Below, one piece after another: positions 7,758-37,480 of a stretch of DNA of 64,000 nt. The position numbers and the translations under genes were made by a program. The notes below the pieces were generated by a model. That model saw nothing but the letters and a program-made list of their open reading frames with translations. It ran no database searches and had not been told where the DNA came from. This stretch comes from an uncultured bacterium (GTDB taxonomy: Bacteria > Margulisbacteria > Termititenacia > CAZZFK01). Every line of letters begins with the position of its first letter. Position 1 is the stretch's first letter. Where the stretch lies: positions 21,949 through 85,948 of the forward strand of contig CAZZFK010000008.1 in the NCBI GenBank assembly GCA_964653455.1, read 5' to 3'.

Positions 7758-7868
7758 GGGAATAGATCGTTCGCGGTATGAACTTCTTTCATGGGCTATA
7801 ATGTTCGTATGGTCGATCACACAGCGGTCGGTCCCCGATACAGCGGTCTTTTCCCTGCCGGTGCCCCT

Positions 7869-14828: not shown

Positions 14829-15319
14829 ACTGTATCATGGCCGCGAGGGGAATAAAATATGGTACTTATTGCGTATCTGTTCATGCTAGAAAAGATATAG
14901 GTATATTCTTTAGTAAAAATAACGCTAGACATCCCTCTTTTTTTTCTATATAATCTTTTAAAAATAAGCTTAAGTCCGTCTGTTAAGTATTAATGTAATT
15001 TATGTTTTTCTCTGTGGGGGAGAGAAATGTTCTTATCATGTGGGGGCATGAACCCCTTCATCTTTTTTATTCAATGTTCAGATCCTGGCATGTATCATGC
15101 TGGATCAGTTTCGTTATATGCTGTGTGTATCTTCCTTGTGTTCACTGTGTTCTTCCCTGGTCCTTGTTCTTTGTCATTTGCTTCTAAAGGTCCTTCCTTA
15201 AATACACCAATATCTTTCGATACATTTTCTGCCCCTCAACCTGTCGATAATAGCTATGTCGAGGAACCACGTCGCCAAAAACTATGTATAAGATCTAAAA
15301 CAGTGGGGAATACTTTGTC

Positions 15320-18300
15320 ATGATCATGCACACACGTACTTCTGGTTTACTTAAGAACGTACTGATGACCGCAGGCATTATGCTTTGCGTGTTCGGCAGT
15401 GCTCCCGCTTTTTCTTTGGAAACTCAAAATTTAGCGTTCACTGTTTCAGGTTCTTTTTCTATTCCTGCCGGTGCTACCAGTGTCAATCTTGCCGTTACCC
15501 TTGTCGGTGCCGGCGGTAATGGCGGAGACAGATATTATTCTACCGCGCTCTATTATTCACAAGGCGGCGGCGGCGGGAGCGGATATCTTGCGACCTCAGC
15601 GAACCTTATTCCTGCAGCATCAACGTATTATGTGGTCGTCGGCAGTCCTACGAACGTTGCTGCCGGGGATGGTTCTGCGACGCAGTTACGTGCAACTTCG
15701 GCCGCAGGTACGCTCCTCCTTTCCGCGACAGGCGGCACAGGCGGTATTACCGGAACAACGGTTAAAGGCGGTAATGGCGGCGGCGGTTACGGCGGCGGTG
15801 GCGGCGGCGGTGCATATCGTTCCGGCAATATCATTACCGGCGGGACTGGCGGCGCTGGATCTGCAGGTGCGGGCGGCAGCGGTGGTGCTGCTCTGGCCGG
15901 ATCTCGCGGCGGCGGCGGCGGCGGCGGTTACGATAGTATCGGTACCCCGGCAAGCGGGGGCACTGCTTCAGGTAATGCAGGAACAGGCGGTTTTGGCGGC
16001 GGCAATGGAGGTACGGCAACATCTGTAGGCGGTACGCTGCCTTCCGGCGGATACGGTCCGTATGTGAACGGTGCCTATCGCGGCAGCGGCGGTACAGGTG
16101 CGGGTTTTTCAGGTGCATTTTCAGCGGCGAACAATAAAGGTTCTAACGGATATGCGTACATCACGATGACCTATGCGCCGGACGTGACGCCCCCTGTGCT
16201 GAACGGTGTTCCGTATTATTCCAAACCATTCTCCTCGGGCACAATGATGTTTAAATGGTATGCGGCAAGTGACGGTACCGGGGCAGGGGTGAGCGACTAT
16301 TACTATGAAATATATCGGGATGAATGTGTGACAGATAATCTTGTCAGTTCCGGTTGGACAACAGGGCTTTCGTTCACGTATTCCGGAGGAATTCCCGGTG
16401 CGACCTATTATTGCCGTGTGAAGGCGCGTGATGCCGCTCCAACGCAGAACGTCAGTACGTTCTCGGATTACAGTCAGGGGCTGTTAGTTACGAACCCTGC
16501 AATAGTGGCAAAACAGCTGACCATACTGACAATAAAACCTTCCGGTTCCCAGGCTAAAAAAGATGCCCACGGATATTATTTCAACGGCAGTTCGGCGACG
16601 GCAGGTGACGGGTATGAACTTCGTGTAAATGATACAACGTCCGGTGAGCAGGCACATCCGTCACTAGCTGCTTTAAAGAACCGTAATTTTGTTGCGGTAT
16701 GGTCGAACGCCGGTAATATTTACGGTAAGATCATATCTCCTACCGGTGATATCGTTAAGGCTGAGTTCAAAATTAATGCATATTCTCAATATGATGCGCT
16801 GAGCTGTTATCCTCGTGTGGCAGGGCTTTCCAATGGGATGTTCGTGGTCGTGTGGGAGGTCTATAACAGCAGCGGCAAGCGTGATATTTATATTCGCCGG
16901 TTCGCGGCCGATGGAACTCCGTATAGTTCAACAGCCTCCGGGTCCGGCTCGACGACAGAAGTTCAGGTGGGAAATAATGTGCCTACGCTTGATAAGCGCC
17001 AGCCTGATATCGCGGCTTTGGGCAACGGCCGGTTCGTTGTCGTATTTGATATGACCTCGGCTTCGACAGGGAAAAGCGTCATTAACAAAGCAGTATATTA
17101 TGATACAGGTTCATTGTCTTCTCCGATCCAGCTTGTGGCGATAGCTCCCATCGATGCGGCACAGGACTGTGTATATCCGAGGGTCGCTTCGTTCGGCCCG
17201 ACGAGAAATGAGTACGCAGTGGTGTGGGGGACCGAATACAGCATCTCGAATCCGCCCAATCCGCCGAATCCTGCAGGGGGCGATATCTGCATGATATCGT
17301 ACGATAATGCGAATTTTGCGACCGCAAGCGCACGGCTTGTCAATCAAACAACTTCTTTGAAACAGTTCAACCCGGTCATTACGGGCTATGCGACCGGTTT
17401 TGCCGTGGCCTGGGCCAGCGAATCGGGGTCTGATATCGGGAATGACGGGTATTATTTTTATTATCGTAACTGGGGTATTTCCGGTTATCAAGCCAATGAT
17501 ACCTGGTCCAATGTCTTTTTCAGGCAATACGATGTGTATGGGGTTTCAACAAATGCTCAACAGATCGTTGAGCAGGGATCCAGGCTCACCAGTTATCTCG
17601 ATCCGGCGATCAATGCTATTGAATCGACCGCTTCTATTAACGGTATGATCGCTTTGTGTTATCTGAAAACTCAGGATTCAGAGGCTCTTCTGTACCAAAC
17701 GACATATACGATACCTGCGCATACTTCTGAAGTGTTCGCCAGATTCTACAGTCTGGAAGGTTCCTCCTTGTCGGATACCAGCACGACCATCAATACCTAT
17801 ACCGCAGGCATACAGGATGGTATTGCGCTGGCCTCTATGGGGGCAGTGGACAAGAGTTATTTAATGACTGCCTGGAACAGTGCCGGACAGGACGGGTCAG
17901 GTCTTGGAGTATTTGCGCGCCAATATGTCATCGGACCTCGGGTATTGAATCTTACCCGCGGGAAATCGTATGCGACCATACAAGCGGCATTGGACGACGC
18001 GGAGAATAATGATCAGATAGTGCTGATAGAAGGTGTCTTTAATTTAGATGAACCCTTGATCTTCAAGCCGGGGCTTAAAGTGACCTTGCGTGCTTATACT
18101 GAACAAGGTGTGAGCCGGGCTAATACTATTATCTCCGGGCAGTATGTGTCGCGGCTCATGGAGTTCGGTGCAGGGGTGAGCGTCAGTATCGAGAATCTGA
18201 CCTTGGTGCAGGGGGCTGTAGAAGAAACTAACGGGTACTTTGGTGCGGTTGTTTCCTGTAATTCCAGCGCAAAGTCTGAGCTCTTTTTCCGTAATGTTTT

Positions 18301-21300
18301 GTTCAAAGATAATTATGCAGCACAGGGCGGGGGTGTGATGTTCCTTCAGGGCGCAACAAGGGCCAAGGCTCCGGTGGTTCTCCTGGAAACATGCGAATTC
18401 AGCAATAATTACGCGGCAGACCTGGGCGGCAGTGCGATATATGCGGTCAATGCGAGCGTTACGGTCGACAGATGCTTGTTCAACGGAAATAATTCCACCG
18501 CTGCCGGCGGTGCTATCTATTCGCTGGGGTCGTATATATACGCGTTCAATTCGACCTTCCTTTCCAATAAAGCGTCCACCTATGGCGGCGTGTATTATGG
18601 AGGAGAGGACCCGACCTCCGGTCAGGACGGTGAACTTCTCGCGGAGCGTTGCACGTTCGCCCGCAACAGTGTGGCCAGCACGGGACGCGGCGATGTTCTT
18701 TATTTGGCGAACAATACCGCGTTCACGGCCCGCAATTGTCTGTTCCATCATAATTACTTGTCCACTGCGCAGACGTATGCCATGGTGATCAATACGAGCA
18801 GCAGGGCATATTTCTATAATTCCACGTTCTCTGCGCACAGAGGGGTCGCTCTGTGGACCGCAGGGGCTAACTCTATTTTTCAAGCGTATAATACGTTGTT
18901 CACGGATTGCGGGCCGGCCACATCAATGTTCGCAGGGACAGCACTGGATGCCATCGTAGAACACTGCAGCGTTGATGAGGCGTTGCCTTCAAAGATCGGG
19001 ACGACCGGGACCATAGTCGGCGATCCCAAGATAGCGTTCTCTTCCTATCCATTCCTGGTCAAGGGTTCGCCCTGTGTGGATTCAGGTATCTATCTAGCGG
19101 ATGTCACTGTCGATATCGAGGCAGTCGCTCGTCCTCAGGGAGTATCTTATGATATCGGTGCCTATGAAGGGGCACGACTTTTTGTATCCGATCTGTACCC
19201 GGGAAATTCCTTCGCCGCTCCGCAAGATCTGCAGATACAGGCAGTGCTCTGGATGGTCTCCTGTAATGCGCAGTATCCTCTGACGGTGACAATAAATGAT
19301 CTTAACGGTGCTACCAAGGACGCGACGCTGGTCTTCTTGTCCACGGAAACGTTATATCAGACCGATAAATATCAAGGGATCATAGTCCGGGTCGACGACA
19401 CGCATTCGAGGCTCCTGGTATATGCCAAGGACAGTTCGTTCCTGGAGAACGGCGATCATTTCAGTGTGCAGATCAATTCCGTCCATACACCGCCCCGCGG
19501 AGAGCTCTATCGGACCGATGATCCGGAACCTTTCTTTAATGATGAGCAGATGGAATTCTTTGTGGCAGGTGTCCCGTTCCTGAGCGAATGGTATGCGGGA
19601 GGGCTTACGCGGAACAATACGGTCTCCTATAACAGTTCAGTCGGCAATGGTGCGGATATCGATCAGGACGGGTATCCGGACCTGATCGTCGGTGACGCAG
19701 GCTTTAACGGCGAGACCGGTCAGGCGTTCTTGTATTATGGCGGTCCTGAACAGGAACGCGATGTGAAAGCGGTCTTTACGGGTGTGACCCCTAACTCACG
19801 GTTCGGGGCTATGGTCGGTATGGCCTATATCAATAAGGACGGGTATGGGGATGTGCTCATCGGGGCTCCTGGCGAGAAAAAGATCTACCTGTATTACGGA
19901 ACAAAGGCTTTGGCAGGAGCGTCCGCGCTGGATACGGAGCACCCGTCCTTTGTCATCACGGCGCCGGATGACAGTGCGTATGGGTTCGGCGAGAAGTTCG
20001 ATGTCGGCGATGTGAACGGTGACGGCTACGATGATATCGTGGTCGCGGTCCCTTCATATAATTCCGACGCGGGTGCGGTGTTCGTGTATAACGGCAGGAG
20101 CCTGCTGGCCGGCGGAAAGAGTTCCGCAGCGACCTACAGAACTCTTTCAGGCAGCGGGCAGGGTTTTGCCCAGGCGGCGATAGTCGGCGGTGATCTTGAT
20201 CTGGACGGTGTCGAAGATATCGTTGTCGGTCTTCCGGACGGCGGTACGGATAAAGCAGGTCTGGCATACGTCTACTTTGGTGCGGCGGGTACCCCTGATT
20301 TCTTTACGGCAGGGTCTCTGATGACCAAAACCCTGCAGGCGCAGGTGCCGGCAGCAAATGATCATTTCGGGTATTCACTGGCGAAAGGGAAAGATATCAA
20401 CCATGATAATTTTGCGGATATCCTGGTCGGCAAGTACACGGAACCGGGAGATTCGGGGTGCGCCTGGGTCGTATATGGCGGGGTACGCAGTGATATCGGC
20501 AGTTCCGTCAAGGTACGGACCATCGTTCAGCCGCGGGATATTGAGCGTGATAATGAGAATGTTTCTGCGAACAGCAGTGCTCAGCAGTTCGGTATCACGG
20601 TCGCCTCCGCAGGAGACCTTGACGGTGACGGCTATGATGATTTCATGGTCGGTGCACCGTATGCCGGCAGTACCGGGATGGGCATGATCTTCGTATATAT
20701 GGGGGGTAAGCTCATCGATGAAAGTTTTGATGCGTACAATTTCAACGGTTATGTGATAGCCGGTCATGATGCCGGAGCGCACACCGGGGCCTCGCTCTTG
20801 AACATCCAGGATTATAACGCTGACGGATATGATGAAGTGGCGTTCAATGACCGCTTTGCAGGCAAGAACACGGTGCATGTCATGTATAACGCGGCTGCGA
20901 CCGATATTGCCGCGCCGGTCATCACCTATGCGATGCCTCGGACCGGGATGGCGGGTGTTCCGGAAAATCCGACATTTAATATCACTATCTATGACAGAGG
21001 GAAGAGCGGCTTGAACCTGGCCTCGATCGAAGTTCGTTTGTATCCTCGCGGCATGGGAGAGGCGGATTCTCTTGAAGCCTATCTTCAGAGGAAGATCATC
21101 AACAGTGCGGGACTTGATACTGCCGGCAGTACCGGGTTCAATTCAGCGCAGGTCAAAGATGCATATATGGTCCTGACCCTTGCTTCCGGCGTGACGGTAC
21201 CTATTGCCGCTGGTATTCCGGTCGATGACTATAATGATGCTCTGGGGATGGTAAAGGCGATCAGCATATATTTCACCTTGAACGACGTTTTGGAGAGTTC

Positions 21301-24300
21301 GGAAGGCTATGAGCTTGAGGTCAAAGCTCAGGATTGGGGTGCGGTGCTCCCTGCGTATCAGTATACCGGGCAATACTTTTCCGGTCTTGCGCTGACCCCG
21401 AACATTATTTCCTTCTCGACGAACCAGAAACTTTTTGTGTCCGGGAATACCGGCACGAACGTCAAGTCCATCGGTGATTTCAACGGGGACGGTCTTGATG
21501 ATGTTGCGGTCTTTACTCCGGGCGCGACCTACGGTGAGATATATAATACGACCAATGCGTCGTGGTTCGTCGGTATCCCGGCGCCGGGGACCAATGCCAA
21601 TAAAGGCTATGTATTGCTCTATTTCGGCGGGCCGGACATCAAGTTCGATACACCGAACGTGATCCTGGTCGGCGGTGATACGTCCGGTACTTTTGCGACG
21701 GATGTGTTCGGTATCCCGCAAGTGACCCTGACGCATGCAGATTCCGGGGATGTGTACCATGATGTGGTCGTTCTCGAAGGGAAGGCCGTGAACGATTCAG
21801 GATATTCCCGTGTGCATGTGTTCAGCGGACAGGCCATGGATAAGACCGATACTCCGGTCATAATGTCCAACGGTGTACCGAGCCAGGTCTCGAAGAACGT
21901 GTATATCGACAGGGGTATACCGTTGTATGACATCAATGGCGATGATTATCCGGATATTGCCGTTTCAGACGGCGGTACTTCCAATGCCGTGTACGTGCTC
22001 TACGGCAGCGGTACGGGTTTCCAGACGAACAAGAGCGTGATCAGCGGTCCTGCGGGGTCGGCTTTCGGGTCCGCGCTGGCCGAGTGCGGACGTACGCTGG
22101 TGATCGGGGCTCCGAACGCTTCGTACGGTGATTTTGAATATCGCGGGGCCGTCGGTGTGGTCGCGAACAATACCGACGAAACGCTGCTCCCGGATAAGAT
22201 CGTGGCTGTCGGAGAGATGTGGCTCGGGGCCCGTGCCGGCGCTCATTTCGGCGCGTCCCTGGCGAGCGGGTATTTCAACGACACATATACCAGTCCGAAC
22301 ACGGTGGCGACCGGCGCCTACCCGGATATCGCGATCGGTGCGCCCAATGATGATCAGTTCGCAGAGAACGCCGGCAGTGTCACCATCTTCTTTGGCAAGA
22401 GCGCTCTGTTCACGCCTTTACCGGTAGCGACTCCCGATGTCGTTCTGCTTCCGGAGAGCATTGATTCCGAGTTCGGGACCCGGCTTGCCGCGGCTAAATA
22501 TCTGAGCACACCCGCTCATTATAAGCGGTGGGCGCTGGGGTATGACCGGTACAATAAGGATTATTTTGATAATTATGATGACCTCATTGTCTCGGCCCGT
22601 ACGTATGATAATGCGATGGCCTCAACGACCGGTAACGGCAAGATATATATCTATGCGGGCGGAACGACGCTTTCTCAGACGGCGGACGCGGGGTACTTGG
22701 GAGGAGCACGTGAGGAGCTCTCACTCATCACGAACGGCGGAGATGTGCTCGGTATGAACAGTGATTCACTGTTCGTGATCAAAGCCTCGGAAGGTGCAGG
22801 CCAGTTCTATCTTCTGCAGAACCGTGATATTCCTGATACGGTGTATCCGACCTTCGTTCGTGTCTATCCGCCGAACGATTCGTACGATGTTTCTGTCGAT
22901 TCCGATATCATATTCGAGGTGTCCGATGCTTCCGGTATCTTGAAGGAGAGCCTGATCGTGTACCGGTACCGCAAGGATTACACGGATACGAGCAGGGAGA
23001 TCGTCAAGGCCGGCGTGGTCGCCGATAAGTCCCAGACCAATCCGATCAAGGAATATGAACTTGTCTCTGCCGATATCGGCAGCAGCGGCACGACGGTACG
23101 GTTCACGTTGAGCCCTCATCCGCAGAATTATGAACCGCTGCCCGGTGAATATCCGGCGGGGCAATGGACCGAGAGCGAACCGGTCAATGTGGACCTGTAT
23201 ATCGGCGATAAACGTACGGTGTGGGTCAGCGATACTAAGAAGAACATCCAGTCGCTTATGACGAAGTTGAACTATGGCTTTATGACCAAGTTCAAGGCCA
23301 ATGAGGCGCAAAAGATACAGCTGTTGGGTGAAGAGGATATGCCGAACACCTATTTTGGTTCTTCGATCGCTTCCGTGGGTGATGTGAACGCGGACGGATA
23401 TACTGATTTTGTCATCGGTGAATACGGGAATAATCAATACGGGCCGTACTCAGGGAAAGCATATCTGTACCTTGGCAGCGGAGATTTCTATGAACTGGCC
23501 CGTGCCGACCTGACCCTGACCTTGGGGTCGGGGACAGCCTCTTCCCGTTTTGGGTATAAAGTGGCGCCTGCCGGTGATATGAACAATGACGGGTATGATG
23601 ATGTTGCGGTAACGGCCCTTAATTCCGGGTCTACGGGCGCGGAAGTGTTCGTTCTGTTCGGTGGTCCGGGCGTTATTTCCGGGCTGAACAGCGCACGCTG
23701 GGACCTTACGTTCCTGAACACGTATGCGACGGTCGTGCAGGGGGCGTACCCTCAGGACGGCTTCGGAACGGCGGTCTATGGTAACGGCGATATCAACGGT
23801 GACGGCTATGACGACCTGCTCATCGGTGCGCCGTACACGGATATAGACAGTAAAGAAGAGGCCGGCCGTGTCTATGTTATCCTGGGGCGCAAATATGAAT
23901 CATCCTATGGTCAAACGGGAGCCCGTCATTTAAATCCGGATAATGAAGGCGGGGCCCGAGGTCCGATACGGGCCACAGAGCTCGCGGAGCTCTCCGCGGA
24001 CACGCTCTCCTCTTTCGATCCGTCGGATACGAACGGGACGCTGCGCGGTTTTTGTATCAGCGGTACGACGGCCTATGAACGGTTCGGCTCTGCGGTCATG
24101 AGCGGTGTGAACATCAACGGCGATACGGCGGTCGTTGCCGTTAATAATGCCGCGAACGTCAATGCGACCAAGAACACCGAGGTCTCTGAACTGCTTATCG
24201 GTGCGCCGGGTACGTCACATGCCAAAGGTGCGGTACATGTCTATTCGTTCAATACCGGCACAAAGGTCCTCTCCCGCGCGACGCTGCTCACCGGGGAAGC

Positions 24301-27300: not shown

Positions 27301-30300
27301 TATCGATGACGGGGCCGAATATTCTCGCCTGATGGTCTTTGTTTCCGCGAACGCCGTTGATGATATGGGCGTCGTGGATATCTTTATTTCCGGTGATGTG
27401 ACGAACAATGGCCTTACAGAAGGCATGACAACGGTGGATGCCTGGGTCTCGGCGAACGCAGAGGACTATGCGATCTATCTTGATCCGTACCTTTCAGAAG
27501 GGTATCGCAATCTTGAACCGTCTGACGGTAAACGTATCGTGTCGGTCAAGTTCCGCGATGCTCAAGGCAATGTCAGCGCGATAGCGACGGATGATATCCT
27601 CTTGTCCTATTTCTCGACGGAAGGACGTCCGGTCATCAGCAAGTTCTTCATCAATGGTGCTACCAGGGCGGCCGCCGAGAAGGCCAAATTCACATCAAGC
27701 AATACGGTAGCGCTCTATATCGACGGGTTCGATGTGGAAGGTGTTACTCCGACCACGGAGGGCAAGATCGTTGCCTATAGGCTTATGGGGCATATCACTG
27801 CCAATACCCAGGTGGAACCGGGTAAATGGTATCCTTATCCTGCGACCAAGATCATTCCTGCCGTCGCGCTCGCGACCAGTGAGGGTATCCGTACCATCGC
27901 CATGCAGTTCCTTGATCGTGATTATATTACCGCCAATGCGACTGACAGCGATGTCGTTGTTCAATTAGCGGCCATCAATGATCAGACGGCATCTATCAAT
28001 AGTCTTGGACGCACAAGTTCCTGGAACTATGCCTCGATCACTTTTGACCGGACCCCGCCGTTCTTCAATTTCTGGCTCAATAATCCGGTGAATATGTATC
28101 GTTCTTCATACTTTTGCCGTTCTGAAGGGAAATTGAGCGGTTCATGGAAAGCTTCGGACACATATTCAGGTATAGCCCGGTATGATTATTGTATCTATGA
28201 GGTCTCTCAGAACACAGGCTGGGTGACGGCAAGCCTTTCATATGAGACCTCGACGAACTATACGCTGATCCAGGCCTGGAAGACCGTGCCGGCAGCGCAG
28301 ATAATCAATGACCTGGCAACGGTCACATCGAACCTTGCGCTTGAGTCAGGTAAGGACGGTTATTGTTTTGTGGTCAACGCTATCGACGGTGCAGGCAATG
28401 TGGCCCAGGTCACGACCAATCTGTTGGCCGTTGATATAACCAAGCCGTATGCGACGGTGTACTATGATTCCAGTGCGCTATTATCCCGCCCCGTATTCGA
28501 TATCGATTTTGCGGATGACAGAGCGGGCTTGTACCAGGTGTCCGTCGCGTTGAACAATAAATTCGGTGCACAGCGCATCATTACGAACATCAATGAAGAT
28601 GAGGTCGGCATACCGAGCAAGAACGGTGCGTACCGTACCCTGTACAGCAAGAACTGGCGGCTGGATGATGATATCTGGGCCGATCTGGCTGAAGGCGAGA
28701 ATACGCTCTATTTCAAGATAACCGATGCGGCAGGCAATGTGGTCTATCCGTCCGACAGCGACTCGACTGGAGAAACAAGCTATACGTTCATTAAAGACAC
28801 GCTGGCGCCTACAGGTACGGCCCGTTTTAACGGCGGAGCGCTGTATACGAAGAACCTGGTTACGACGGTGAACGTTGATTTCTCCAGTGAAGGCTATTTC
28901 GGTATGGTATATATGACCAGGTATCCCGTGTCAGAGGATATGTTCCTTGAGGACCACAGCTTTGAGGATGCCGGTGATCTTGGGGTCCTCCCGAGCTGGA
29001 ACATGGTCATGAACGGGCTTTCCTCCTCGCAGGTATCGATGAGCGTGAAATTGTTCGGTTCCACCGCCACGACCAAGAATACCGCCTGTTCCATAAAGGA
29101 CGGTCTGTACGGTCTGGTCGTCAGCTTCAATGTCTCCACGCAGGGGAATGAGTCCGCGAAGCTCGGCGGGTGGGCTTTACAGAAACAGGTGAACATTGCC
29201 ACCGCGAACGTTACCTACAATTTCCACGGGTTCGTGAACGTGGCCAATATCTCGGGTATCGCCACCGGGTCGGAATGGATCGTGGCGGACGTGAGCTATT
29301 ATGATTCAACGCTCGGTCAGACGGTCCGGGTGGTCTGTCCCGATACCATATGGAACGGCGAAGCGGACAGCAAGAGCGGCTGGAACATGTTCCAGGGGAA
29401 TATATTCATCCCGAACAACAGCGAGGTCACGCTCCGGTTCACGTTCGGCGCGAAAACCTGGCAGAATACGAACGGCTATATCGTACTCGATGATATCAAC
29501 TTTATACCGGGTGGCGACCTGGTCGTGACCGAGAACAAGAGCATCTCGTTCCTGTATAACTTGGAATCGGGAGATGACGGGTATCGCAAGATCTATGTTG
29601 CTGCCCGCGATCAGGCCGGCAACTGGAAGAACAGCGAAAAGTCCATTTTCTATGACACCACACCGCCTTCCTTTAATGCGCCGAACTGCGGTGTACAGTT
29701 GTATACCATCTCGGGCAACGGTACATATCAAAAAAATAATACCAAACTGATGTGCGGGTATCGTGCCGACGACGGGCTCGGATCAGGTGTATCATTCTAT
29801 ACCTATACGATCGATGTCAGTATGATGGTCACTGCGGACGCGGACGGTGACCTGGTAGAGCCGGTCTGGACAGAGTACAAGAGCGTATCCGGGAAAACGG
29901 CAGTGCTGACCACCGATGATATTCCGACCAGACGCAATACGTCATACCGCTATCGTGTCCGTGCGGTGGATGCTCTGGGCAATACCAGTAATTATACGAC
30001 GAGCAATGTCGTCATCGTCGATGTGGATGCGCCGCAAAGCTTTGTGACGGTCTCGGCATCTCTGCCGGACGGTATCAATCCGCAGGGGTCCGGCTGGTAC
30101 AAGGATGGTCCGATCCTTGTGACGATATCCGCCGTTGACCATTCACGGGTCTTCAATACACTGTACGATCTGCCGACGCGCAATGGCTGCGGAGTCTCGA
30201 CAATTAATTATGTGAAAGGGTATGTACGTGACGGGGTGGCCGTTCTTGAACCGACCGTGAGCGTGACGATAGTATCCCCCACACAGGAAGTGACGGTCGC

Positions 30301-33300
30301 GATTGATCATGCAGGGCAGAACCTGTTCGGGTATTGGGCATCGGACGCGCTGGGGTGGACAGAAACGCCGAACTGGGTCAATTCCGAGAATCTCCATATT
30401 GATAAGGACGCGCCGGTCGTCACGAGCAACCTGCATATATACAGCTATCCGAACGCGAAGCGTTGGTTCAGTGCCGATAATCTTCCGGTGGAATATACCC
30501 TGGACGATCAGTTACGCGCCCATGTCGTGAGCGGGAACCTGCTGCATCGGGCCGATCGTCTCGGTGACGGTACATCCAGACTGTATTACAAGGTCGATGA
30601 TAATCCGACCGGCAATCTGTACGCTGATCGGCGCGAATTAGGGTCCATCTTCCCGTTCGCGGTCCTGCCGACATTGAACGGCGAGATCACCGGCTGGGAT
30701 AAGACCGCGGCCGCCGGCCTCAGTCCGTACGTGGAGCCGTTCACGCTGCGCAGTGCCGACGGCGTACTGCCTCCGCTCGACGGTGAAGGCGTGCATATCG
30801 TGTATTATTGGGCGGAAGATAAGTATGAACATGTTTCAACGGTGAATTTTGTCGATGATATACGCATCGATAACGGCAAGCCTGAGCTCAGTCTTAATAT
30901 GGGCGGCAGCTTCCAGACCGTATGGTGCACGGACCCTGCCGGCATTCAGGCCATTATCGAGGTCAGGGATTTCTATGAAACGCCGGTCTCTTATAATTCC
31001 GCATGGTATCGCGGTCAAATGCCTCCTTCAGGCTGGATGATCGATGAAGGGGAGAAGACCATAATCCCGGGTTCGGGTATCAAGAGCTTCTGGTACCAGC
31101 TGAACTCAGAAATACCGACCGAGGTCACGTTCCCCGGGGAAGAAGATCCGCTCATCGATTATCTCGAGTATCGTTTCACGAAGACCTTCGTGGTACCGAT
31201 CATGACCAACGGGTATAACGTACTGAGATATATCATTACGGATAATGCCTATAATGTGGCGGACATACATTCCGGGCATCTGGAGTGGCATTCGGACCTT
31301 CGTTCCTGGATATCGGACTCCGATACGGGCATGATCAGGTACATACGTCTGGACAATGAACCGCCGACGGCAGCTGCAGTGCTCCTGAACCGGTATAAGG
31401 CCGCCCCGTTATATACGAACAACCGGTTGGTCTCCTGTAACCTGCAAGCTCAGGATTTCGGTATCGGCGTGAAATACGCGATGATCTACGGCTATGATGA
31501 TTCCATACCCGATGCGGAGAATAATCCGTACGCCTGGACGGCACTTGAGCCGACGATCAATGTTCTGTACCAGTTCTTTACGACCAATACCTGGAACATG
31601 ATCGCGGATACGGATGCGGACCGGTATTGGGATTTCGATAACAATCGCAGCCCGCGTGCGATCGTTGATATGCATAAGTACATATATCTCGAGGATAGGG
31701 ACGGAACAAAGAACGTGCAGGCGGTCTTCGCCGATGATTTCGGCATGCCGTATGAGAGCGTGTCTGCCGATGAAGAATGCGCGTACGTGACATATCAGTC
31801 CTGGAGGGATAATGTGTCCGCGAACGGACAATATCCCGTGTTCACCACGGCGGAGAAAGCACGTCTTGATGCGATCCCGTTCGAGAAGTGGCCGACACGG
31901 GCGGTGTACATCGCGCGCATGCCTGCGATAGAGAACCATGCCAGCGTGACCGCGAGCACGCTCATCATCCTCGATCGTCAGATCGTGGCGGGCAGTGTCA
32001 CGTCCAGTACCGTATTACAGACCAAATATGGCCCGTATGTGACCACCCGGAACGTTAAGCTGTCCATCTCGCATGATGATCCCTCAGAGCTGAGCGGCAT
32101 CGACGCCGTGATGATCTATGGCGACCTTGCGGAGAACGGGAAGAACAATGTATGGCTGCCGTACACCTCCGGCAGCAGCCAGGATATCACGGTGCTCATC
32201 CCTCAGGCGGAGTACGATTCTGTCACTATCGACCTGTACGTGGTCTGGCGCGATCGTGCGGGCAATATCAGCACGCCGGTCACGATGAGCTTCCAATATG
32301 AAACACCTATGCAGGCGGATAATCCGCAGTATCGTATCAATTTCCCGACCGCGGGATGGTATATGACCACACGTAATGTCTCGGTGCTCCTGAATTTCCC
32401 GGGAGCGAACTATGTACACTTTGTCGGCGATGTGGATAGCACGTTCAGTACCTTGAATTACAGAACGAACGTTTCCTGCATGCTGTCCGAAGGTGATGGC
32501 CTGAAGGCCATGGGTATCTGGCTCGAGGACCGGCTGATCTCGACCATCACCATGACCCAGAACTTCCTGCTCGACCGCTCTGCACCGTCCGGTACGGACA
32601 ATGTGAACACCGGTATCATCTATGAGGACCAGAACGGTGCGACCTTCACGCTTTCCTTCTCTGATGTACCGACACCCGGCATCCAGGTCTCCGGCATCAA
32701 GAAGATCTATTATCAGATCAATAGTGAGGCCGTGGTCACCGTGGAAGTGCGTGATGCTTCCGGCTATTATTCGGCGCCGACCGCGAACAAGATCACGGTC
32801 ACTATCCGCAATAAGAGCGCGCATAATCAGTTGAAGTATTGGGCGGAAGATATGGCCGGGAATATATCCGCGGTCACTGCGATAAGCGGTATCAAGGTAA
32901 ATACGCTGCCGATAGCGGTACCGCAGCTCAGTCCGGTCACGGTCAATCGGTACACGGATGTGCTCCCCGGAGAGGACGTGTATTACGTGAACAGCAGGAC
33001 CGTGACCTTCAATTTCTCCGCGGTGAATGCGGACCGCATGTGGCTCTATGGCGATATCGTTGAGGACGGAACGGGACCTGTGGTCATCACGGTCGGCGGC
33101 GTCACCAAGCGTTCCGTTCAATTGACCGGCGCCGAGAATGTCGTACAGCATGTACGTGTCGTCTATGGCGATGATTTCTCGAGCATCGGAGGTAAGACCA
33201 TCTCGACCACGCTCAATATCATCCTTGATACGGTAGCTCCGGCCAGCCCGTCCCTTGTGTCCCTGTCGGCGCAGGTCAGCGCGTCAATATACTGTACCTC

Positions 33301-34240
33301 CATCACACCGTTGCGCTTCCGAGTCCATGGTAACGGTTCGGATGTGGGCAGCCAGTCGATCGCCATCAAGAAGAACGGCGTCGATGCGGTACGGTCCAGC
33401 GAGGATGTGACCCTGGTGAGCAAGCTCGCTGTGGATTTCGCGAAGCCCGGAGAGCAGAGCGTGTTCTCCGTCGTTGCCCGCGACCGCGCCGGCAATGAAA
33501 GCGTACCGGTGACGTTCAATGCCCTGTTCAATCCCAACGGCGGTGTGCGTCTCCTCTCCGGCGATCTGCCTGACGATGTTGATGTGACCGTCGAGGTCGT
33601 GGACCCGAACGATGAACGGATGCAGCAGGCCAATAAGAAATTGAAAGGAGTTATTGCGAACACCCCGCTTGAAGGTACCGTACGCGATTTCACGGCGAGC
33701 GGAGATGTTTTCAACGGCACCGAACTTGAAATGGTCATGCCGTTCCCGACCGCGCTCGGCAGCATCAACCCGTATGACCTGAGGATATATACCTATGATC
33801 CTCTGACCGCCAAGTGGGTACAGGTCCAGGGTGAACATGTTGTCGATCTCGAGGCCCGGGTGATCCGTGTACGCGTCACGCACTTCTCGATCTATCGCGT
33901 GTTCGCGGTCAGACCGTTCGCGAGCAGTCTTTCCAGTGTTCGCGTATACCCGAACCCGTTCAAGCCGGATTCAGGCGACCGCAGCCTGGGCGGTGCGGAG
34001 GATACGTCATATATCACGATCGATAATATCACGCAGACCGCGAAGATACGTATCTACACGATCTCCGGAGAGCTGGTCCGTATCATCGAGGCTGACGAGG
34101 GCGTATCGCAGCTGGAATGGGATGCGACCAACACCGAAGGGGAGCAGGTCGCCAGCGGTGTATACATTTACCTGATCACCGATAAGGACGGACATAAGAA
34201 GATGGGCCGCATAACGATCATACGCGGAGAGGTAGAGTAG
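15320..34240 (+). CDS. Giant secreted multidomain surface protein (6306 aa): Gly-rich region, Pmp-like beta-helix, 3x FG-GAP propellers, Ig-like/cadherin-like domains, LamG-like domain, T9SS-type C-terminal sorting domain
   Basis: A single uninterrupted 18,921-nt ORF. Signal peptide MIMHTRTSGLLKNVLMTAGIMLCVFGSAPAFS. A Gly-rich low-complexity region spans roughly residues 60-270. A right-handed beta-helix with GGAI/FxxN-type repeats (AAGGAIYSLGS…FNSTFLSN) maps to about nt 17940-19170. Three blocks of FG-GAP repeats carry DxDxDG calcium loops (for example DVNGDGYDDIVVA, GDLDGDGYDDFMVGAPY) at about nt 19620-20850, 21470-22400 and 23370-24850. Numerous beta-sandwich domains follow, then a C-terminal VRVYPNPF…GVYIYLIT domain. 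Confidence 0.9.
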   Translation: MIMHTRTSGLLKNVLMTAGIMLCVFGSAPAFSLETQNLAFTVSGSFSIPAGATSVNLAVTLVGAGGNGGDRYYSTALYYSQGGGGGSGYLATSANLIPAASTYYVVVGSPTNVAAGDGSATQLRATSAAGTLLLSATGGTGGITGTTVKGGNGGGGYGGGGGGGAYRSGNIITGGTGGAGSAGAGGSGGAALAGSRGGGGGGGYDSIGTPASGGTASGNAGTGGFGGGNGGTATSVGGTLPSGGYGPYVNGAYRGSGGTGAGFSGAFSAANNKGSNGYAYITMTYAPDVTPPVLNGVPYYSKPFSSGTMMFKWYAASDGTGAGVSDYYYEIYRDECVTDNLVSSGWTTGLSFTYSGGIPGATYYCRVKARDAAPTQNVSTFSDYSQGLLVTNPAIVAKQLTILTIKPSGSQAKKDAHGYYFNGSSATAGDGYELRVNDTTSGEQAHPSLAALKNRNFVAVWSNAGNIYGKIISPTGDIVKAEFKINAYSQYDALSCYPRVAGLSNGMFVVVWEVYNSSGKRDIYIRRFAADGTPYSSTASGSGSTTEVQVGNNVPTLDKRQPDIAALGNGRFVVVFDMTSASTGKSVINKAVYYDTGSLSSPIQLVAIAPIDAAQDCVYPRVASFGPTRNEYAVVWGTEYSISNPPNPPNPAGGDICMISYDNANFATASARLVNQTTSLKQFNPVITGYATGFAVAWASESGSDIGNDGYYFYYRNWGISGYQANDTWSNVFFRQYDVYGVSTNAQQIVEQGSRLTSYLDPAINAIESTASINGMIALCYLKTQDSEALLYQTTYTIPAHTSEVFARFYSLEGSSLSDTSTTINTYTAGIQDGIALASMGAVDKSYLMTAWNSAGQDGSGLGVFARQYVIGPRVLNLTRGKSYATIQAALDDAENNDQIVLIEGVFNLDEPLIFKPGLKVTLRAYTEQGVSRANTIISGQYVSRLMEFGAGVSVSIENLTLVQGAVEETNGYFGAVVSCNSSAKSELFFRNVLFKDNYAAQGGGVMFLQGATRAKAPVVLLETCEFSNNYAADLGGSAIYAVNASVTVDRCLFNGNNSTAAGGAIYSLGSYIYAFNSTFLSNKASTYGGVYYGGEDPTSGQDGELLAERCTFARNSVASTGRGDVLYLANNTAFTARNCLFHHNYLSTAQTYAMVINTSSRAYFYNSTFSAHRGVALWTAGANSIFQAYNTLFTDCGPATSMFAGTALDAIVEHCSVDEALPSKIGTTGTIVGDPKIAFSSYPFLVKGSPCVDSGIYLADVTVDIEAVARPQGVSYDIGAYEGARLFVSDLYPGNSFAAPQDLQIQAVLWMVSCNAQYPLTVTINDLNGATKDATLVFLSTETLYQTDKYQGIIVRVDDTHSRLLVYAKDSSFLENGDHFSVQINSVHTPPRGELYRTDDPEPFFNDEQMEFFVAGVPFLSEWYAGGLTRNNTVSYNSSVGNGADIDQDGYPDLIVGDAGFNGETGQAFLYYGGPEQERDVKAVFTGVTPNSRFGAMVGMAYINKDGYGDVLIGAPGEKKIYLYYGTKALAGASALDTEHPSFVITAPDDSAYGFGEKFDVGDVNGDGYDDIVVAVPSYNSDAGAVFVYNGRSLLAGGKSSAATYRTLSGSGQGFAQAAIVGGDLDLDGVEDIVVGLPDGGTDKAGLAYVYFGAAGTPDFFTAGSLMTKTLQAQVPAANDHFGYSLAKGKDINHDNFADILVGKYTEPGDSGCAWVVYGGVRSDIGSSVKVRTIVQPRDIERDNENVSANSSAQQFGITVASAGDLDGDGYDDFMVGAPYAGSTGMGMIFVYMGGKLIDESFDAYNFNGYVIAGHDAGAHTGASLLNIQDYNADGYDEVAFNDRFAGKNTVHVMYNAAATDIAAPVITYAMPRTGMAGVPENPTFNITIYDRGKSGLNLASIEVRLYPRGMGEADSLEAYLQRKIINSAGLDTAGSTGFNSAQVKDAYMVLTLASGVTVPIAAGIPVDDYNDALGMVKAISIYFTLNDVLESSEGYELEVKAQDWGAVLPAYQYTGQYFSGLALTPNIISFSTNQKLFVSGNTGTNVKSIGDFNGDGLDDVAVFTPGATYGEIYNTTNASWFVGIPAPGTNANKGYVLLYFGGPDIKFDTPNVILVGGDTSGTFATDVFGIPQVTLTHADSGDVYHDVVVLEGKAVNDSGYSRVHVFSGQAMDKTDTPVIMSNGVPSQVSKNVYIDRGIPLYDINGDDYPDIAVSDGGTSNAVYVLYGSGTGFQTNKSVISGPAGSAFGSALAECGRTLVIGAPNASYGDFEYRGAVGVVANNTDETLLPDKIVAVGEMWLGARAGAHFGASLASGYFNDTYTSPNTVATGAYPDIAIGAPNDDQFAENAGSVTIFFGKSALFTPLPVATPDVVLLPESIDSEFGTRLAAAKYLSTPAHYKRWALGYDRYNKDYFDNYDDLIVSARTYDNAMASTTGNGKIYIYAGGTTLSQTADAGYLGGAREELSLITNGGDVLGMNSDSLFVIKASEGAGQFYLLQNRDIPDTVYPTFVRVYPPNDSYDVSVDSDIIFEVSDASGILKESLIVYRYRKDYTDTSREIVKAGVVADKSQTNPIKEYELVSADIGSSGTTVRFTLSPHPQNYEPLPGEYPAGQWTESEPVNVDLYIGDKRTVWVSDTKKNIQSLMTKLNYGFMTKFKANEAQKIQLLGEEDMPNTYFGSSIASVGDVNADGYTDFVIGEYGNNQYGPYSGKAYLYLGSGDFYELARADLTLTLGSGTASSRFGYKVAPAGDMNNDGYDDVAVTALNSGSTGAEVFVLFGGPGVISGLNSARWDLTFLNTYATVVQGAYPQDGFGTAVYGNGDINGDGYDDLLIGAPYTDIDSKEEAGRVYVILGRKYESSYGQTGARHLNPDNEGGARGPIRATELAELSADTLSSFDPSDTNGTLRGFCISGTTAYERFGSAVMSGVNINGDTAVVAVNNAANVNATKNTEVSELLIGAPGTSHAKGAVHVYSFNTGTKVLSRATLLTGEAEGDQFGSSLTSMGDMTNDLELLGTEYEEFAVGAPYNNANGTDAGSAYLYLGKSDCASVTSAYLAFYGQNAGDAFGYALANVGNVDNDQYGNNDLAISAPFNARGGKNAGRVYIFGSALSSEKPHTLVMDKMADYANEGEAGYVFGYDVSGLGDLDGDFVPEYLIGAPSYASNNIENRGRVFLYTNPDDFGPTLNLAWLNPQDGSTGNKKVHSYFDETLSATVNIPLTIRLYAKDNRIVYINGSSVELRGEDENKAYTYRFSNPVTGVNYYTIHNRKIVEFFVVHPYYRYGEMVDVTANIIDVCGNKLGANMALTPNYMGAPYTFRFQVEENPYDGPSKLVAKVNPVPDTNGAGLYGDSKLYTDNPNISVALAARDMKGGVCYVNFGMGSLDIMQVVDNIPVSQLSGLAGAVTADMFDDDGSTAITFNINVSANNFKVYNPYSSFGRATLSSGDGVKTFAFQAWDMSLNPSEVVTVSIILDTLPPTISERCPTPGSTGVANQVSVSFTASDAGSGINLENLSVVVARGADRYQYFVPYGLQSVVFAPFTENCSTNTSVADYFAQINNGSLQDGIGCISTEGIADLSAGTMLRSGSSVYNDGVISLTLSGFDYTQDALELAFRSDITVEGIVEQGYALSLERVSGQTYSRLSLKKVLPKSTVVLATRNLTTVDSSQTAPRLQVVMNGSYLKVFWNNELKIEMQDNTYITGRVGIAAPAGKHIALDQIDIVRLPAITITAGDDADTQLVHQNNFENDTAEFTNGTDVAAGRVDDPDTDGIEPINQVLRLTSSPTTISFYTDASSIPGLASDHVINFKYLVSNAGSAGTVFFRVQDQNNGYILSLEGSTVRWGKLVNGTYYDSESGWCATSDITLASRTNAVNEWSSYTLKVNGTKFTLLQDAVVLSSVTDVDAAHPAFISGGFGFAAIGGNIIYLDDLSASNILKNKLYATISLPYFNYEDEISISINIEDMTAADYPTHRIVDHFSFTVSPDYRAPYDPSVVIDDGAEYSRLMVFVSANAVDDMGVVDIFISGDVTNNGLTEGMTTVDAWVSANAEDYAIYLDPYLSEGYRNLEPSDGKRIVSVKFRDAQGNVSAIATDDILLSYFSTEGRPVISKFFINGATRAAAEKAKFTSSNTVALYIDGFDVEGVTPTTEGKIVAYRLMGHITANTQVEPGKWYPYPATKIIPAVALATSEGIRTIAMQFLDRDYITANATDSDVVVQLAAINDQTASINSLGRTSSWNYASITFDRTPPFFNFWLNNPVNMYRSSYFCRSEGKLSGSWKASDTYSGIARYDYCIYEVSQNTGWVTASLSYETSTNYTLIQAWKTVPAAQIINDLATVTSNLALESGKDGYCFVVNAIDGAGNVAQVTTNLLAVDITKPYATVYYDSSALLSRPVFDIDFADDRAGLYQVSVALNNKFGAQRIITNINEDEVGIPSKNGAYRTLYSKNWRLDDDIWADLAEGENTLYFKITDAAGNVVYPSDSDSTGETSYTFIKDTLAPTGTARFNGGALYTKNLVTTVNVDFSSEGYFGMVYMTRYPVSEDMFLEDHSFEDAGDLGVLPSWNMVMNGLSSSQVSMSVKLFGSTATTKNTACSIKDGLYGLVVSFNVSTQGNESAKLGGWALQKQVNIATANVTYNFHGFVNVANISGIATGSEWIVADVSYYDSTLGQTVRVVCPDTIWNGEADSKSGWNMFQGNIFIPNNSEVTLRFTFGAKTWQNTNGYIVLDDINFIPGGDLVVTENKSISFLYNLESGDDGYRKIYVAARDQAGNWKNSEKSIFYDTTPPSFNAPNCGVQLYTISGNGTYQKNNTKLMCGYRADDGLGSGVSFYTYTIDVSMMVTADADGDLVEPVWTEYKSVSGKTAVLTTDDIPTRRNTSYRYRVRAVDALGNTSNYTTSNVVIVDVDAPQSFVTVSASLPDGINPQGSGWYKDGPILVTISAVDHSRVFNTLYDLPTRNGCGVSTINYVKGYVRDGVAVLEPTVSVTIVSPTQEVTVAIDHAGQNLFGYWASDALGWTETPNWVNSENLHIDKDAPVVTSNLHIYSYPNAKRWFSADNLPVEYTLDDQLRAHVVSGNLLHRADRLGDGTSRLYYKVDDNPTGNLYADRRELGSIFPFAVLPTLNGEITGWDKTAAAGLSPYVEPFTLRSADGVLPPLDGEGVHIVYYWAEDKYEHVSTVNFVDDIRIDNGKPELSLNMGGSFQTVWCTDPAGIQAIIEVRDFYETPVSYNSAWYRGQMPPSGWMIDEGEKTIIPGSGIKSFWYQLNSEIPTEVTFPGEEDPLIDYLEYRFTKTFVVPIMTNGYNVLRYIITDNAYNVADIHSGHLEWHSDLRSWISDSDTGMIRYIRLDNEPPTAAAVLLNRYKAAPLYTNNRLVSCNLQAQDFGIGVKYAMIYGYDDSIPDAENNPYAWTALEPTINVLYQFFTTNTWNMIADTDADRYWDFDNNRSPRAIVDMHKYIYLEDRDGTKNVQAVFADDFGMPYESVSADEECAYVTYQSWRDNVSANGQYPVFTTAEKARLDAIPFEKWPTRAVYIARMPAIENHASVTASTLIILDRQIVAGSVTSSTVLQTKYGPYVTTRNVKLSISHDDPSELSGIDAVMIYGDLAENGKNNVWLPYTSGSSQDITVLIPQAEYDSVTIDLYVVWRDRAGNISTPVTMSFQYETPMQADNPQYRINFPTAGWYMTTRNVSVLLNFPGANYVHFVGDVDSTFSTLNYRTNVSCMLSEGDGLKAMGIWLEDRLISTITMTQNFLLDRSAPSGTDNVNTGIIYEDQNGATFTLSFSDVPTPGIQVSGIKKIYYQINSEAVVTVEVRDASGYYSAPTANKITVTIRNKSAHNQLKYWAEDMAGNISAVTAISGIKVNTLPIAVPQLSPVTVNRYTDVLPGEDVYYVNSRTVTFNFSAVNADRMWLYGDIVEDGTGPVVITVGGVTKRSVQLTGAENVVQHVRVVYGDDFSSIGGKTISTTLNIILDTVAPASPSLVSLSAQVSASIYCTSITPLRFRVHGNGSDVGSQSIAIKKNGVDAVRSSEDVTLVSKLAVDFAKPGEQSVFSVVARDRAGNESVPVTFNALFNPNGGVRLLSGDLPDDVDVTVEVVDPNDERMQQANKKLKGVIANTPLEGTVRDFTASGDVFNGTELEMVMPFPTALGSINPYDLRIYTYDPLTAKWVQVQGEHVVDLEARVIRVRVTHFSIYRVFAVRPFASSLSSVRVYPNPFKPDSGDRSLGGAEDTSYITIDNITQTAKIRIYTISGELVRIIEADEGVSQLEWDATNTEGEQVASGVYIYLITDKDGHKKMGRITIIRGEVE
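33938..34237 (+). other. T9SS-type (Por_Secre_tail / FlgD-Ig-like) C-terminal sorting domain of the giant protein
   Basis: VRVYPNPFKPD…AKIRIYTISGELVRII…EWDATNTEGEQVASGVYIYLIT matches the hallmarks of type-A CTDs (YPNP motif, …iYd.sGrlV…, GvYfy…). Confidence 0.6.
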
Positions 34241-34274
34241 GTCTTTTCCCGGATAAAGGATATACGGATGATGG

Positions 34275-34306
34275 ACAGGGGCCGCATTATGCGGCCCCTG
34301 TCTTTT
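34275..34306 (+). terminator. Rho-independent terminator downstream of the giant gene
   Basis: A perfect GC-rich hairpin caggggccgc-atta-tgcggcccctg (10-bp stem) is followed by tcttttat. Confidence 0.6.
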
Positions 34307-34504
34307 ATGTATAGGGCCGTATTTCTTTTGCTAAGCCCCTTTTTTAGTAAATCCCAGGTATAAAAAGTCGTTCAGGTGGGCATACCTACAGAGGATAGGC
34401 GAACATGAAAATGGACCAGATAAAAGGCATACATTTTTTTAGTGTTCAATGACGATAGTATGGGTGTACAGCACCATACATGCATTTCTTTTGTGGGGGA
34501 AGAA

Positions 34505-35698: not shown

Positions 35699-35754
35699 CG
35701 AATACCGGGCAGTGAATAACTAACGACGGTCCGTTATCTACTGAGCGCTGTTCG

Positions 35755-36381: not shown

Positions 36382-36400
36382 GATGCGATATTCCTTTGTT

Positions 36401-36463
36401 CAAGTGATGAGTGGCATGTGGCATGTGCCGTGGAGCGTATTTCCTGCCACTTGTTTCTCGTCA
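36401..36463. repeat. Intergenic GTGATGAGTGGCATGTGGCATGTGCC motif with an inverted partner (instance 2)
   Basis: caagtgatgagtggcatgtggcatgtgccgtgg … gccacttgtttctcgtcac. The two arms form an imperfect inverted repeat (GTGAYGAG…GTGGC). It lies between the hisH start and the ROK kinase stop. Confidence 0.4.
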
Positions 36464-37411: not shown

Positions 37412-37425
37412 AAGTTAGTTGTTTT

Positions 37426-37480
37426 AAGTGACATGTGACAGGCGGCCCCGCTGTACTCAGGTCAGCTTGTGGCATGTATG
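37426..37480. repeat. Intergenic AGTGACATGTGACAGGCGGC … CTTGTGGCATGT motif (instance 3)
   Basis: It lies in the divergent region between the ROK kinase gene (minus) and the 759-aa secreted protein gene (plus). Confidence 0.35.

Follow-up and report, generated by a model that had tools for sequence, protein, structure and literature searches.

Results

A giant open reading frame and the barrel gene behind it

The DNA considered here, which we refer to as the window, is a 64-kb stretch of a contig from an uncultured bacterium. Its forward strand carries an open reading frame (ORF) at 15320..34240 that begins with ATG, ends in a single terminal stop codon and encodes a protein of 6306 amino acids, which we call the giant. 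The C-terminus of the giant resembles a type A C-terminal sorting domain (CTD) of a type IX secretion system (T9SS), and the next gene on the same strand, at 34442..35698, encodes a putative outer-membrane beta-barrel of the PorV/PorQ family. Between the stop codon of the giant and the barrel gene lies a GC-rich hairpin (34273..34303, + strand; a 14-bp stem with 10 GC pairs, then a T-rich stretch), which could be terminator-like or mRNA-stabilising.

A sequence-only reading made earlier of this DNA had described the giant as an intact single ORF, and this was borne out, as no internal stop codon is present. The domain coordinates given there also agree with ours to within tens of bases. A chimeric joining of repeats, which the same reading had raised, was looked for in three ways. 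Tandem Repeats Finder reported two short arrays of glycine codons in the ORF and nothing else, the sole multi-copy direct repeat was a 40-nt motif from the FG-GAP loops, with copies 63-80% identical, and the internal repeats of the protein share just ~25-43% identity. We conclude from these comparisons that misassembly via repeats is ruled out. The GC content of the ORF is uniform with that of its flanks, and short contigs from independent Logan assemblies of three sequencing runs match window positions 32755..37722 at 100% identity, a match that takes in the last 1.5 kb of the giant ORF. The exact protein forms a singleton cluster (P0001) in the public protein collection, where its source is an NCBI contig of 88,779 bp.

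The CTD of the giant is nearest to those of PorZ and PorU

The putative CTD occupies residues 6205-6306 (33932..34237, + strand) and was recognised by three models. TIGR04183 matches residues 6209-6294 of 6306 with 24.7 bits against a cut-off of 23, FlgD_ig scores 29.5 bits against a Pfam gathering cut-off of 27, and the NCBIfam model of the PorZ C-terminus scores 62.5 bits. It can be seen that the motifs VYPNPF, WDATN..GE.VASGVYIY and KKMGRITIIR follow one another along the domain, and the assignment as T9SS type A-like with a YPNPF hallmark, proposed from the sequence alone, is upheld by these scores. Pfam PF18962 (Por_Secre_tail) was not reported for the giant at E <= 0.01; CHU_C fails, with 23.8 bits where 27 are required, and no match to TIGR04131 was reported.

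In an alignment of nine CTDs the conserved motifs of such domains (PxP[FY] close to the start, W.G..G..V..G.Y, and K.G[KR]..[IV] at the terminus) were all present. When the profile of these nine was compared with all solved structures, the CTD of PorZ (5m11) was matched with an E-value of 1.5e-9 and that of PorU (6za2) with 1.2e-6, followed by FlgD; in the same search of the PDB no RgpB-type cleaved CTD appeared at E <= 1, and HBP35 reached only E 0.22. PorZ and PorU are two surface components of the T9SS whose CTD is retained, and they remain attached to PorQ and PorV, respectively, which hold them.

The downstream gene is predicted to encode a PorV-like barrel

The PorV-family gene directly downstream of the giant had been missed before, as had the recurrence of the pair. 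Its product (34442..35698, + strand) scores 131.1 bits with the family model NF033709, for which the cut-off is 90. The likely start is the Met codon at 34505, giving a protein of 397 amino acids with a signal peptide next. The thresholds of the PorV and PorQ equivalog models (NF033710/NF033711) and of PorV2 were missed in each case: PorV gave 35.7 bits against 250, PorQ 71.2 against 220 and PorV2 35.1 against 325. We conclude that the predicted barrel is a member of the PorV/PorQ family and an ortholog of neither PorV nor PorQ. Its nearest named homologs, at 52-56% identity, are annotated 'PorV/PorQ family protein' and come from metagenome-assembled genomes (MAGs) of Candidatus Margulisbacteria/Margulisiibacteriota.

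An AlphaFold2 model of the barrel, calculated from a 29-sequence alignment, had a predicted local distance difference test (pLDDT) score of 79.5 overall and above 90 in the barrel part. Foldseek placed the chains 8gl6_F and 6h3i_F first (E 2e-14; TM 0.61/0.65, range 0.59-0.68), both of which are PorV chains of the Flavobacterium johnsoniae SprA translocon, with FadL/TodX folds behind them (TM 0.4-0.5). Likewise, the profile of the barrel family found PorV in the PDB with an E-value of 6e-35 and TodX with only 4e-6. The modelled fold is that of a FadL-like barrel nearest to PorV. The C-terminal ~85-90 amino acids (35450..35698) are of low complexity, rich in Lys, Glu, Pro and Ala, with pLDDT below 50; this tail could be a periplasmic or surface linker.

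The cargo-and-barrel tandem recurs

A second pair sits 3 kb further downstream and has the same layout of cargo and then barrel. The cargo is a protein of 759 amino acids, p759 (37551..39830, + strand), with a CTD of the same kind as judged by FlgD_ig (28.9 bits) and the CTD alignment. It is followed at 39854..44041 (+ strand) by a 1395-residue protein that joins a predicted paralogous PorV-like barrel, its N-terminal 300 residues, with SLH domains (five) and Glucodextran_B domains (four); the scores are 205.9 bits for SLH, 119 bits for Glucodextran_B and 49.8 for the PorV-family model, the last being below the cut-off of 90. The first and second barrels share 27% identity (E 5e-14). The joining of a PorV-like outer-membrane barrel to cell-wall-binding SLH domains is an unusual combination.

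To follow the tandem elsewhere, we looked at the same-strand gene immediately upstream of distant barrel homologs. The order of CTD protein and then PorV-like barrel is found twice in the window, twice in the syntenic locus L087 and also in five other loci (L088, L089, L090, L093 and L094/L095). In all cases where the C-terminus of the upstream protein is available, it consists of the same CTD. The upstream proteins of L090, L093 and L094/L095 (726, 670 and 481 amino acids) were recognised by the CTD hidden Markov model (HMM) with E-values within 1e-11 to 1e-17; that of L089, a 2572-residue protein with Big_1 and FlgD_ig domains, was assigned from its Pfam FlgD_ig match and the CTD alignment, with no CTD-HMM score. 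Locus L092 was left out, its upstream fragment being just 24 amino acids long. A metagenome scan with the PorV alignment returned one 2-kb contig. We conclude that, in this genome of Margulisbacteria type, the genes of the predicted type A-like CTD cargo and the predicted PorV-family barrel belong together as a conserved pair.

A syntenic locus encodes an ortholog with a different head

The locus L087, on contig JBHPMC010000008.1 of another Margulisbacteria MAG, has the same gene order as the window locus. It runs from a giant of 5874 amino acids (P0037, with Laminin_G_3 and FG-GAP matches) through a PorV-like gene, hisH, a ROK gene, an 892-residue FlgD_ig protein and a 1391-residue SLH/Glucodextran_B protein to GroES and GroEL. 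The 1391-residue protein has a TraF_2 match at its N-terminus and is collinear with the PorV-like fusion of the window. From residue 744 onward P0037 is collinear with the window giant from residue 1364 to the C-terminus, over ~4940 amino acids and at ~40% identity. Further ortholog fragments are found in L088 and as P0038.

The heads of the two giants, on the other hand, are swapped: residues 1-743 of P0037 differ from residues 34-1363 of the window giant, a difference not remarked on previously. P0037 has here a LamG-like domain interrupted by propeller-like repeats of the form PYVAF.D....KATVMKFNGTSW, in place of which the window giant has a glycine-rich domain, a repeat domain and a beta-helix. 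Between the window and L087 the identity is 80% for GroEL, 61% for the PorV-like barrel (tblastn), 57% for both hisH and ROK, 52% for the 1395-residue fusion, 40% for the giant and 38% for p759. The cargo proteins (giant and p759) thus diverge fastest among the neighbours compared, and fast divergence is typical of exposed surface proteins.

Domains of the N-terminal half

All features of the giant described below are on the + strand. Residues 1-33 (15320..15418) read by eye as a putative Sec-type signal peptide (...CVFGSAPAFS/LETQ), with the typical n-h-c pattern MIMHTRTSGLLKNVLMTAGIMLCVFGSAPAFS at the N-terminus. A glycine-rich domain follows at residues 42-282 (15443..16165); here the match to Pfam Gly_rich_2 spans model positions 2-224 of 226 yet scores 16.6 bits against a cut-off of 24.3, so that the glycine-rich domain proposed earlier has a full-length but weak counterpart. 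Residues 286-395 have an FN3-like look, by eye only.

Residues 436-878 (16625..17953) hold a further repeat domain of the head, which had been overlooked, made up of six clear copies and one degenerate copy of a ~55-residue repeat. The repeat motif is ...P.[IV]A.L.NG.FVVVW....G...[IV]F.R[RQ][FY]..., and a form with DGSG.G[IV]F.R[RQ][FY] is also seen (...NG.FVVVW...DGSG.G[IV]F.R[RQ][FY]...). These copies were found with an HMM of our own, and the E-values are self-referential. The repeats are without a match in Pfam, NCBIfam or the PDB sequences. They may be a fourth propeller, perhaps of an undescribed propeller-type repeat.

Residues 885-1285 (17972..19174) are predicted to form a right-handed parallel beta-helix that bears PMP repeats and has choice-of-anchor Q at its end. 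All of the models concerned score above their cut-offs: Beta_helix 57.3 bits (gathering cut-off 25.9), Chlam_PMP 25.0 (20.6), TIGR01376 33.2 (15) and choice_anch_Q 32.7 (25), the last two from NCBIfam, in which the helix also matches an AIDA-type adhesin. The Pmp-like beta-helix of the sequence-only reading therefore stands, by Chlam_PMP, TIGR01376 and Beta_helix alike. Both PMP repeats and choice-of-anchor Q typify proteins of the cell surface.

Three blocks of FG-GAP repeats come next, at residues 1432-1867 (19613..20920), 2039-2457 (21434..22690) and 2674-3189 (23339..24886), with Pfam FG-GAP scores of 129, 54.6 and 110.8 bits against a gathering cut-off of 22.1. Blades were counted with our own HMM. 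Three seven-repeat propellers had been proposed; it can be seen that blocks 1 and 3 have seven blades each, while block 2 is degenerate, with five strong and two weak ones. Loops of the DxDxDG type are present on ten FG-GAP blades. The propellers match the integrins alpha-5, alpha-4, alpha-V and alpha-IIb directly in the PDB sequences, with E-values from 1e-14 to 1e-10; propeller 1 found the alpha-4 and alpha-V propellers (E 1e-12 to 1e-10) and propeller 3 found alpha-5 (E 2e-14). We conclude that the three FG-GAP blocks are putative Ca-binding, integrin-like propellers.

Domains of the C-terminal half

The C-terminal half contains two predicted jelly-rolls of the concanavalin A (ConA)/laminin G (LamG) kind, only one of which had been placed before. 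The first, at residues ~3560-3730 (25997..26509), is without a direct Pfam match and was recognised transitively: an exhaustive search gave P0065, P0099 and P0109, which align over this region and carry 3keto-disac_hyd or Laminin_G_3, the overlap of those domains with the alignment being direct for P0065 and P0099 and less clear for P0109. The second, at residues ~3760-3935 (26597..27124), has a sub-threshold match to 3keto-disac_hyd at residues 3802-3905 (22.4 bits, gathering cut-off 26.8), and P0083 aligns over it via its Laminin_G_3 domain. The LamG-like claim made earlier thus has indirect support, from the stretches of distant homologs that align here, and a direct Pfam score that is weak.

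Residues 3432-6082 (25613..33565) are a predicted stalk of Big_13-like immunoglobulin-like (Ig-like) and other beta-rich modules, along which D-x-x-[AP]-P boundaries recur. Big_13 is the sole Ig family above its cut-off, with one marginal match (27.7 bits against 27); OmpL47, Big_5, Big_6, Big_7 and Big_3_2 give weak matches. To count the modules, sliding windows of the ortholog alignment were compared by hhalign with a Big_13-like alignment. This gave 13 sites at >=85% probability and three more at 59-65%, and no site at >=50% in the propeller half, which served as an internal control. We conclude that ~13-16 Ig-like modules are supported by this comparison and that more than 20, the number claimed in the sequence-only reading, are possible; the count itself did not reach that number.

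An exhaustive HMMER search of 1.84 billion representative proteins with residues 3470-4669 found three proteins at E < 1e-30, all of them the orthologs described here; the other distant relatives were multi-repeat Big_13 proteins that touch short stretches only. No match was found when the PDB sequences were searched with residues 3201-6306 and with the ortholog profile A1, and a scan of genome contigs with the C-terminal 907 amino acids of the giant gave no relative (nor was the source genome itself recovered by it). The modules of the giant had been said to co-occur rarely. This was not supported, as the ortholog has FG-GAP together with Laminin_G_3 and at least one other large protein, P0036, has FG-GAP together with Big_13.

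Genomic surroundings

The pair formed by the giant and its barrel, 21 kb in length, splits hisA (14097..14828, - strand) from hisH (35755..36381, - strand) and lies on the opposite strand. The adjacency of barrel, hisH and ROK is also found in L087, so that the arrangement must be old, and did not come about by a recent insertion. A recent mobile island was considered and ruled out, since the GC content is uniform and the downstream PorV-like, hisH and ROK genes are kept in L087.

A sigma-54-type -24/-12 match (TGGCATGTATCATGC, 2 mismatches) is present at 15086..15100, ~220 nt upstream of the start of the giant, and may be a chance occurrence. An NtrC-type sigma-54-dependent response regulator is encoded at 6279..7757, 7.5 kb upstream of the giant. 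A 1323-residue protein (9369..13340, - strand) with BNR-like, OmpL47-type and choice-of-anchor X matches and a divergent CTD-like C-terminus is a probable further surface protein. A MORN-repeat protein (7791..9347, + strand) matches a LIC20035-like adhesin family below the cut-off, and the product of 54441..55532 (- strand), which contains two PKD domains, has a probable lipoprotein signal; both are predicted to be further envelope proteins near the giant.

The window also encodes GroEL and a secE-nusG-rplKAJL cluster, as well as flhB and flhA (17..2745) and a complete-looking Tad/Flp pilus locus (44898..53661) with RcpC/CpaB, a secretin, a ParA-like protein, the TadA ATPase, TadB, TadC and a TadE/G-like protein. 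The Tad/Flp locus and the flagellar export genes indicate that the organism is a diderm that probably has pili as well as flagella. The GroEL of the window shares 76% identity with that of a candidate division WOR-1 MAG and no more than 68% with any other sequence returned. Because of this match and the names of the PorV orthologs, we consider the host most likely to be a diderm of the Margulisbacteria/WOR-1 type.

Discussion

We favour, as somewhat the better bet, a reading in which the giant is a Sec-exported adhesin or fibre whose tip is variable and which its CTD and a dedicated PorV-like barrel keep on the outer membrane. The signal peptide, as read from the sequence, would take the giant into the periplasm, and a beta-sandwich CTD of type IX style would then steer it to the outer membrane. 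There the PorV-family barrel encoded by the adjoining gene would bind the CTD, acting as a dedicated shuttle and most likely as a permanent, non-covalent anchor. The C-terminal half, ~2900 amino acids of Big_13-like Ig and other beta-rich modules, would by its domain content form a stalk that holds out the binding domains, namely the two jelly-rolls of ConA/LamG-like lectin type, the three Ca-binding, integrin-like propellers and, distal to these, a head composed of the PMP-type beta-helix, the novel seven-repeat domain and the Gly-rich domain. The head would be the variable, specificity-determining part, because it is swapped in the ortholog. Export, anchoring through an uncleaved CTD and adhesive function are all predicted for the giant. 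That it is a giant adhesin had been suggested before, and this fits the intact ORF and the surface-type domains, although the Ig count put forward with it was supported only in part and the rarity of the modules was not. The S-layer-like role named as the alternative drew no support from our data.

Several points weigh against this reading. TIGR04183 is passed by a narrow margin, and the barrel falls short of the PorV, PorQ and PorV2 equivalog thresholds. AlphaFold2 applied to residues 3470-4669 with a 3-sequence alignment gave a pLDDT of 32, and this model of the stalk was discarded. Co-transcription of the giant and barrel genes is not assured, because a strong hairpin lies between them. None of SprA/Sov, PorK/L/M/N or PorU is encoded in the 64-kb window, and the T9SS has been described as confined to the Bacteroidota/FCB group (Fibrobacteres-Chlorobi-Bacteroidetes; PMC7463736, PMC5445135, PMC12398890). 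In our literature search Margulisbacteria were never mentioned together with type IX secretion. The placement of the host outside the Bacteroidota, an informative feature missed earlier, is based on GroEL and the names of the PorV orthologs.

The main rival explanation is that the giant is a classical type A cargo of a complete T9SS encoded elsewhere in the genome, for which the PorV-like protein would be the shuttle to a PorU-type sortase that removes the CTD and links the giant covalently to anionic lipopolysaccharide (A-LPS). The type A model TIGR04183 is above its cut-off, the CTD motifs are conserved, and the closest fold to the barrel is PorV in the substrate-bound translocon 8gl6; the PorV family is the known shuttle of type A CTDs (PMC12618676). 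However, PorU, SprA and PorKLMN are missing from the 64-kb window, the phylum of the host is outside the reported range of the T9SS (PMC7463736, PMC12398890), and there is one barrel gene for each cargo gene (in both window pairs and in the five loci), unlike a single general shuttle. The CTD is also nearest to the PorZ and PorU CTDs, which are not known to be cleaved, with no RgpB-type CTD at E <= 1 and HBP35 at E 0.22. We regard this explanation as possible but rather unlikely.

The beta-helix and the ConA-like domains could also be looked upon as a lyase or hydrolase and as glucanases, which would make the giant a secreted or surface polysaccharide-degrading complex. Beta_helix (PF13229) and 3keto-disac_hyd/ConA-like folds are indeed found in carbohydrate-active enzymes, and the neighbouring 1395-residue protein carries Glucodextran_B domains. 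Yet no catalytic family (pectate lyase, glycoside hydrolase or polysaccharide lyase) was found in Pfam or NCBIfam at E <= 0.01, the models that the beta-helix matches are those of PMP/POMP repeats, of an AIDA-type adhesin and of choice-of-anchor Q, and more than 70% of the giant consists of propellers and Ig-like spacers, as is typical of adhesins; an enzymatic role is therefore improbable. It is still less probable that the 18.9-kb ORF is an assembly artefact or a decaying pseudogene and not a real single gene. The contig is metagenome-assembled and independent assemblies confirm the last 1.5 kb only, but 18.9 kb run without a stop codon, with a GC content uniform with the flanks and without long or near-identical repeats able to mislead an assembler. 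Moreover, the collinear 5874-residue ortholog lies in another genome with the same downstream genes, and the ortholog fragment P0038 is collinear as well.

The surface adhesin anchored by its own barrel, which we prefer, invites comparison with the PorZ-PorQ and PorU-PorV attachment-complex pairs of the Porphyromonas gingivalis T9SS, in which a surface protein with an Ig-like CTD is likewise combined with a FadL-like barrel of the PorV/PorQ family, and porU and porV are adjacent genes. The CTD here is nearest to those of PorZ and PorU, and the barrel is nearest to PorV. In contrast to these pairs, the cargo is neither a sortase nor a component that binds A-LPS but a 6306-residue adhesin-like fibre, the host resembles Margulisbacteria and is not one of the Bacteroidota, the barrel misses both equivalog thresholds, and the window is without other T9SS parts.

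SprB of F. johnsoniae, which has ~6500 amino acids, shares with the giant its size and the presence of a partner barrel gene, SprF, beside the adhesin gene, so that this part of the comparison made earlier holds. PMC9143113 and PMC12618676 describe the partner outer-membrane protein of SprB as encoded beside the adhesin gene and needed for surface anchorage, and SprB-SprF and PorP-like proteins as cargo-specific barrels of type B CTDs in Bacteroidota; the title of the first source states that PorP/SprF-like barrels anchor type B cargo such as SprB. Among the Bacteroidota, SprB-SprF and the PorP-like proteins are the nearest analogues in organisation. The giant differs from SprB in its CTD, which is type A-like (TIGR04183 passes and CHU_C fails) and not type B, in its partner, which is of the PorV family and not PorP/SprF, and in its domains (FG-GAP, beta-helix, ConA-like). 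Nothing here points to gliding machinery, and flagellar export genes are present in the window. Membership of the SprB type was ruled out by the CTD type and the partner barrel.

Chlamydial Pmp and AIDA-type passengers share with the giant a parallel beta-helix with PMP repeats of the GGA[ILV]/FxxN type. In the giant, however, the helix is one internal module of ~400 amino acids in a 6306-residue protein that ends in a T9SS-type CTD. No autotransporter beta-domain was found in it with Pfam or NCBIfam, and membership of the Pmp/autotransporter class was ruled out on this ground. Seven-bladed FG-GAP propellers with DxDxDG Ca-binding loops are shared with integrin alpha chains and with bacterial FG-GAP/VCBS adhesins; unlike an integrin alpha chain, the giant has three propellers in one chain and is without thigh, calf and transmembrane parts.

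Taken as a whole, the giant reads as a lineage-specific member of the giant CTD-bearing adhesins, and its putative pairing with a PorV-like barrel in a lineage outside the FCB group makes the locus a novel form of a familiar arrangement. Margulisbacteria are a sister lineage of Cyanobacteria and lie outside that group. The pair suggests that a cargo-and-anchor arrangement of type IX style works outside Bacteroidota. More tentatively, and as something we think doubtful at present, the two genes may form a self-contained module in which a cargo with a PorZ/PorU-like CTD and its own PorV-like barrel display and anchor the protein in Margulisbacteria without the classical T9SS translocon and motor. 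If this were true, recognition of the type IX CTD by PorV would be older or more widespread than the T9SS itself, and the SLH-fused variant of the barrel would also link the outer membrane with the cell wall.

Unrelated metagenomic loci carry this tandem as well. If every barrel is dedicated to anchoring its own cargo, the principle seen in PorQ-PorZ, PorV-PorU and SprF-SprB would become a modular system of cargo plus cognate barrel, and surface adhesins of uncultured diderms could then be found by a simple rule applied to their genomes. The lineage of the giant is known from genomes only, and for such an organism a giant protein whose stalk is conserved and whose head varies is a candidate for what determines attachment, be it to particles, to hosts or to partner cells.

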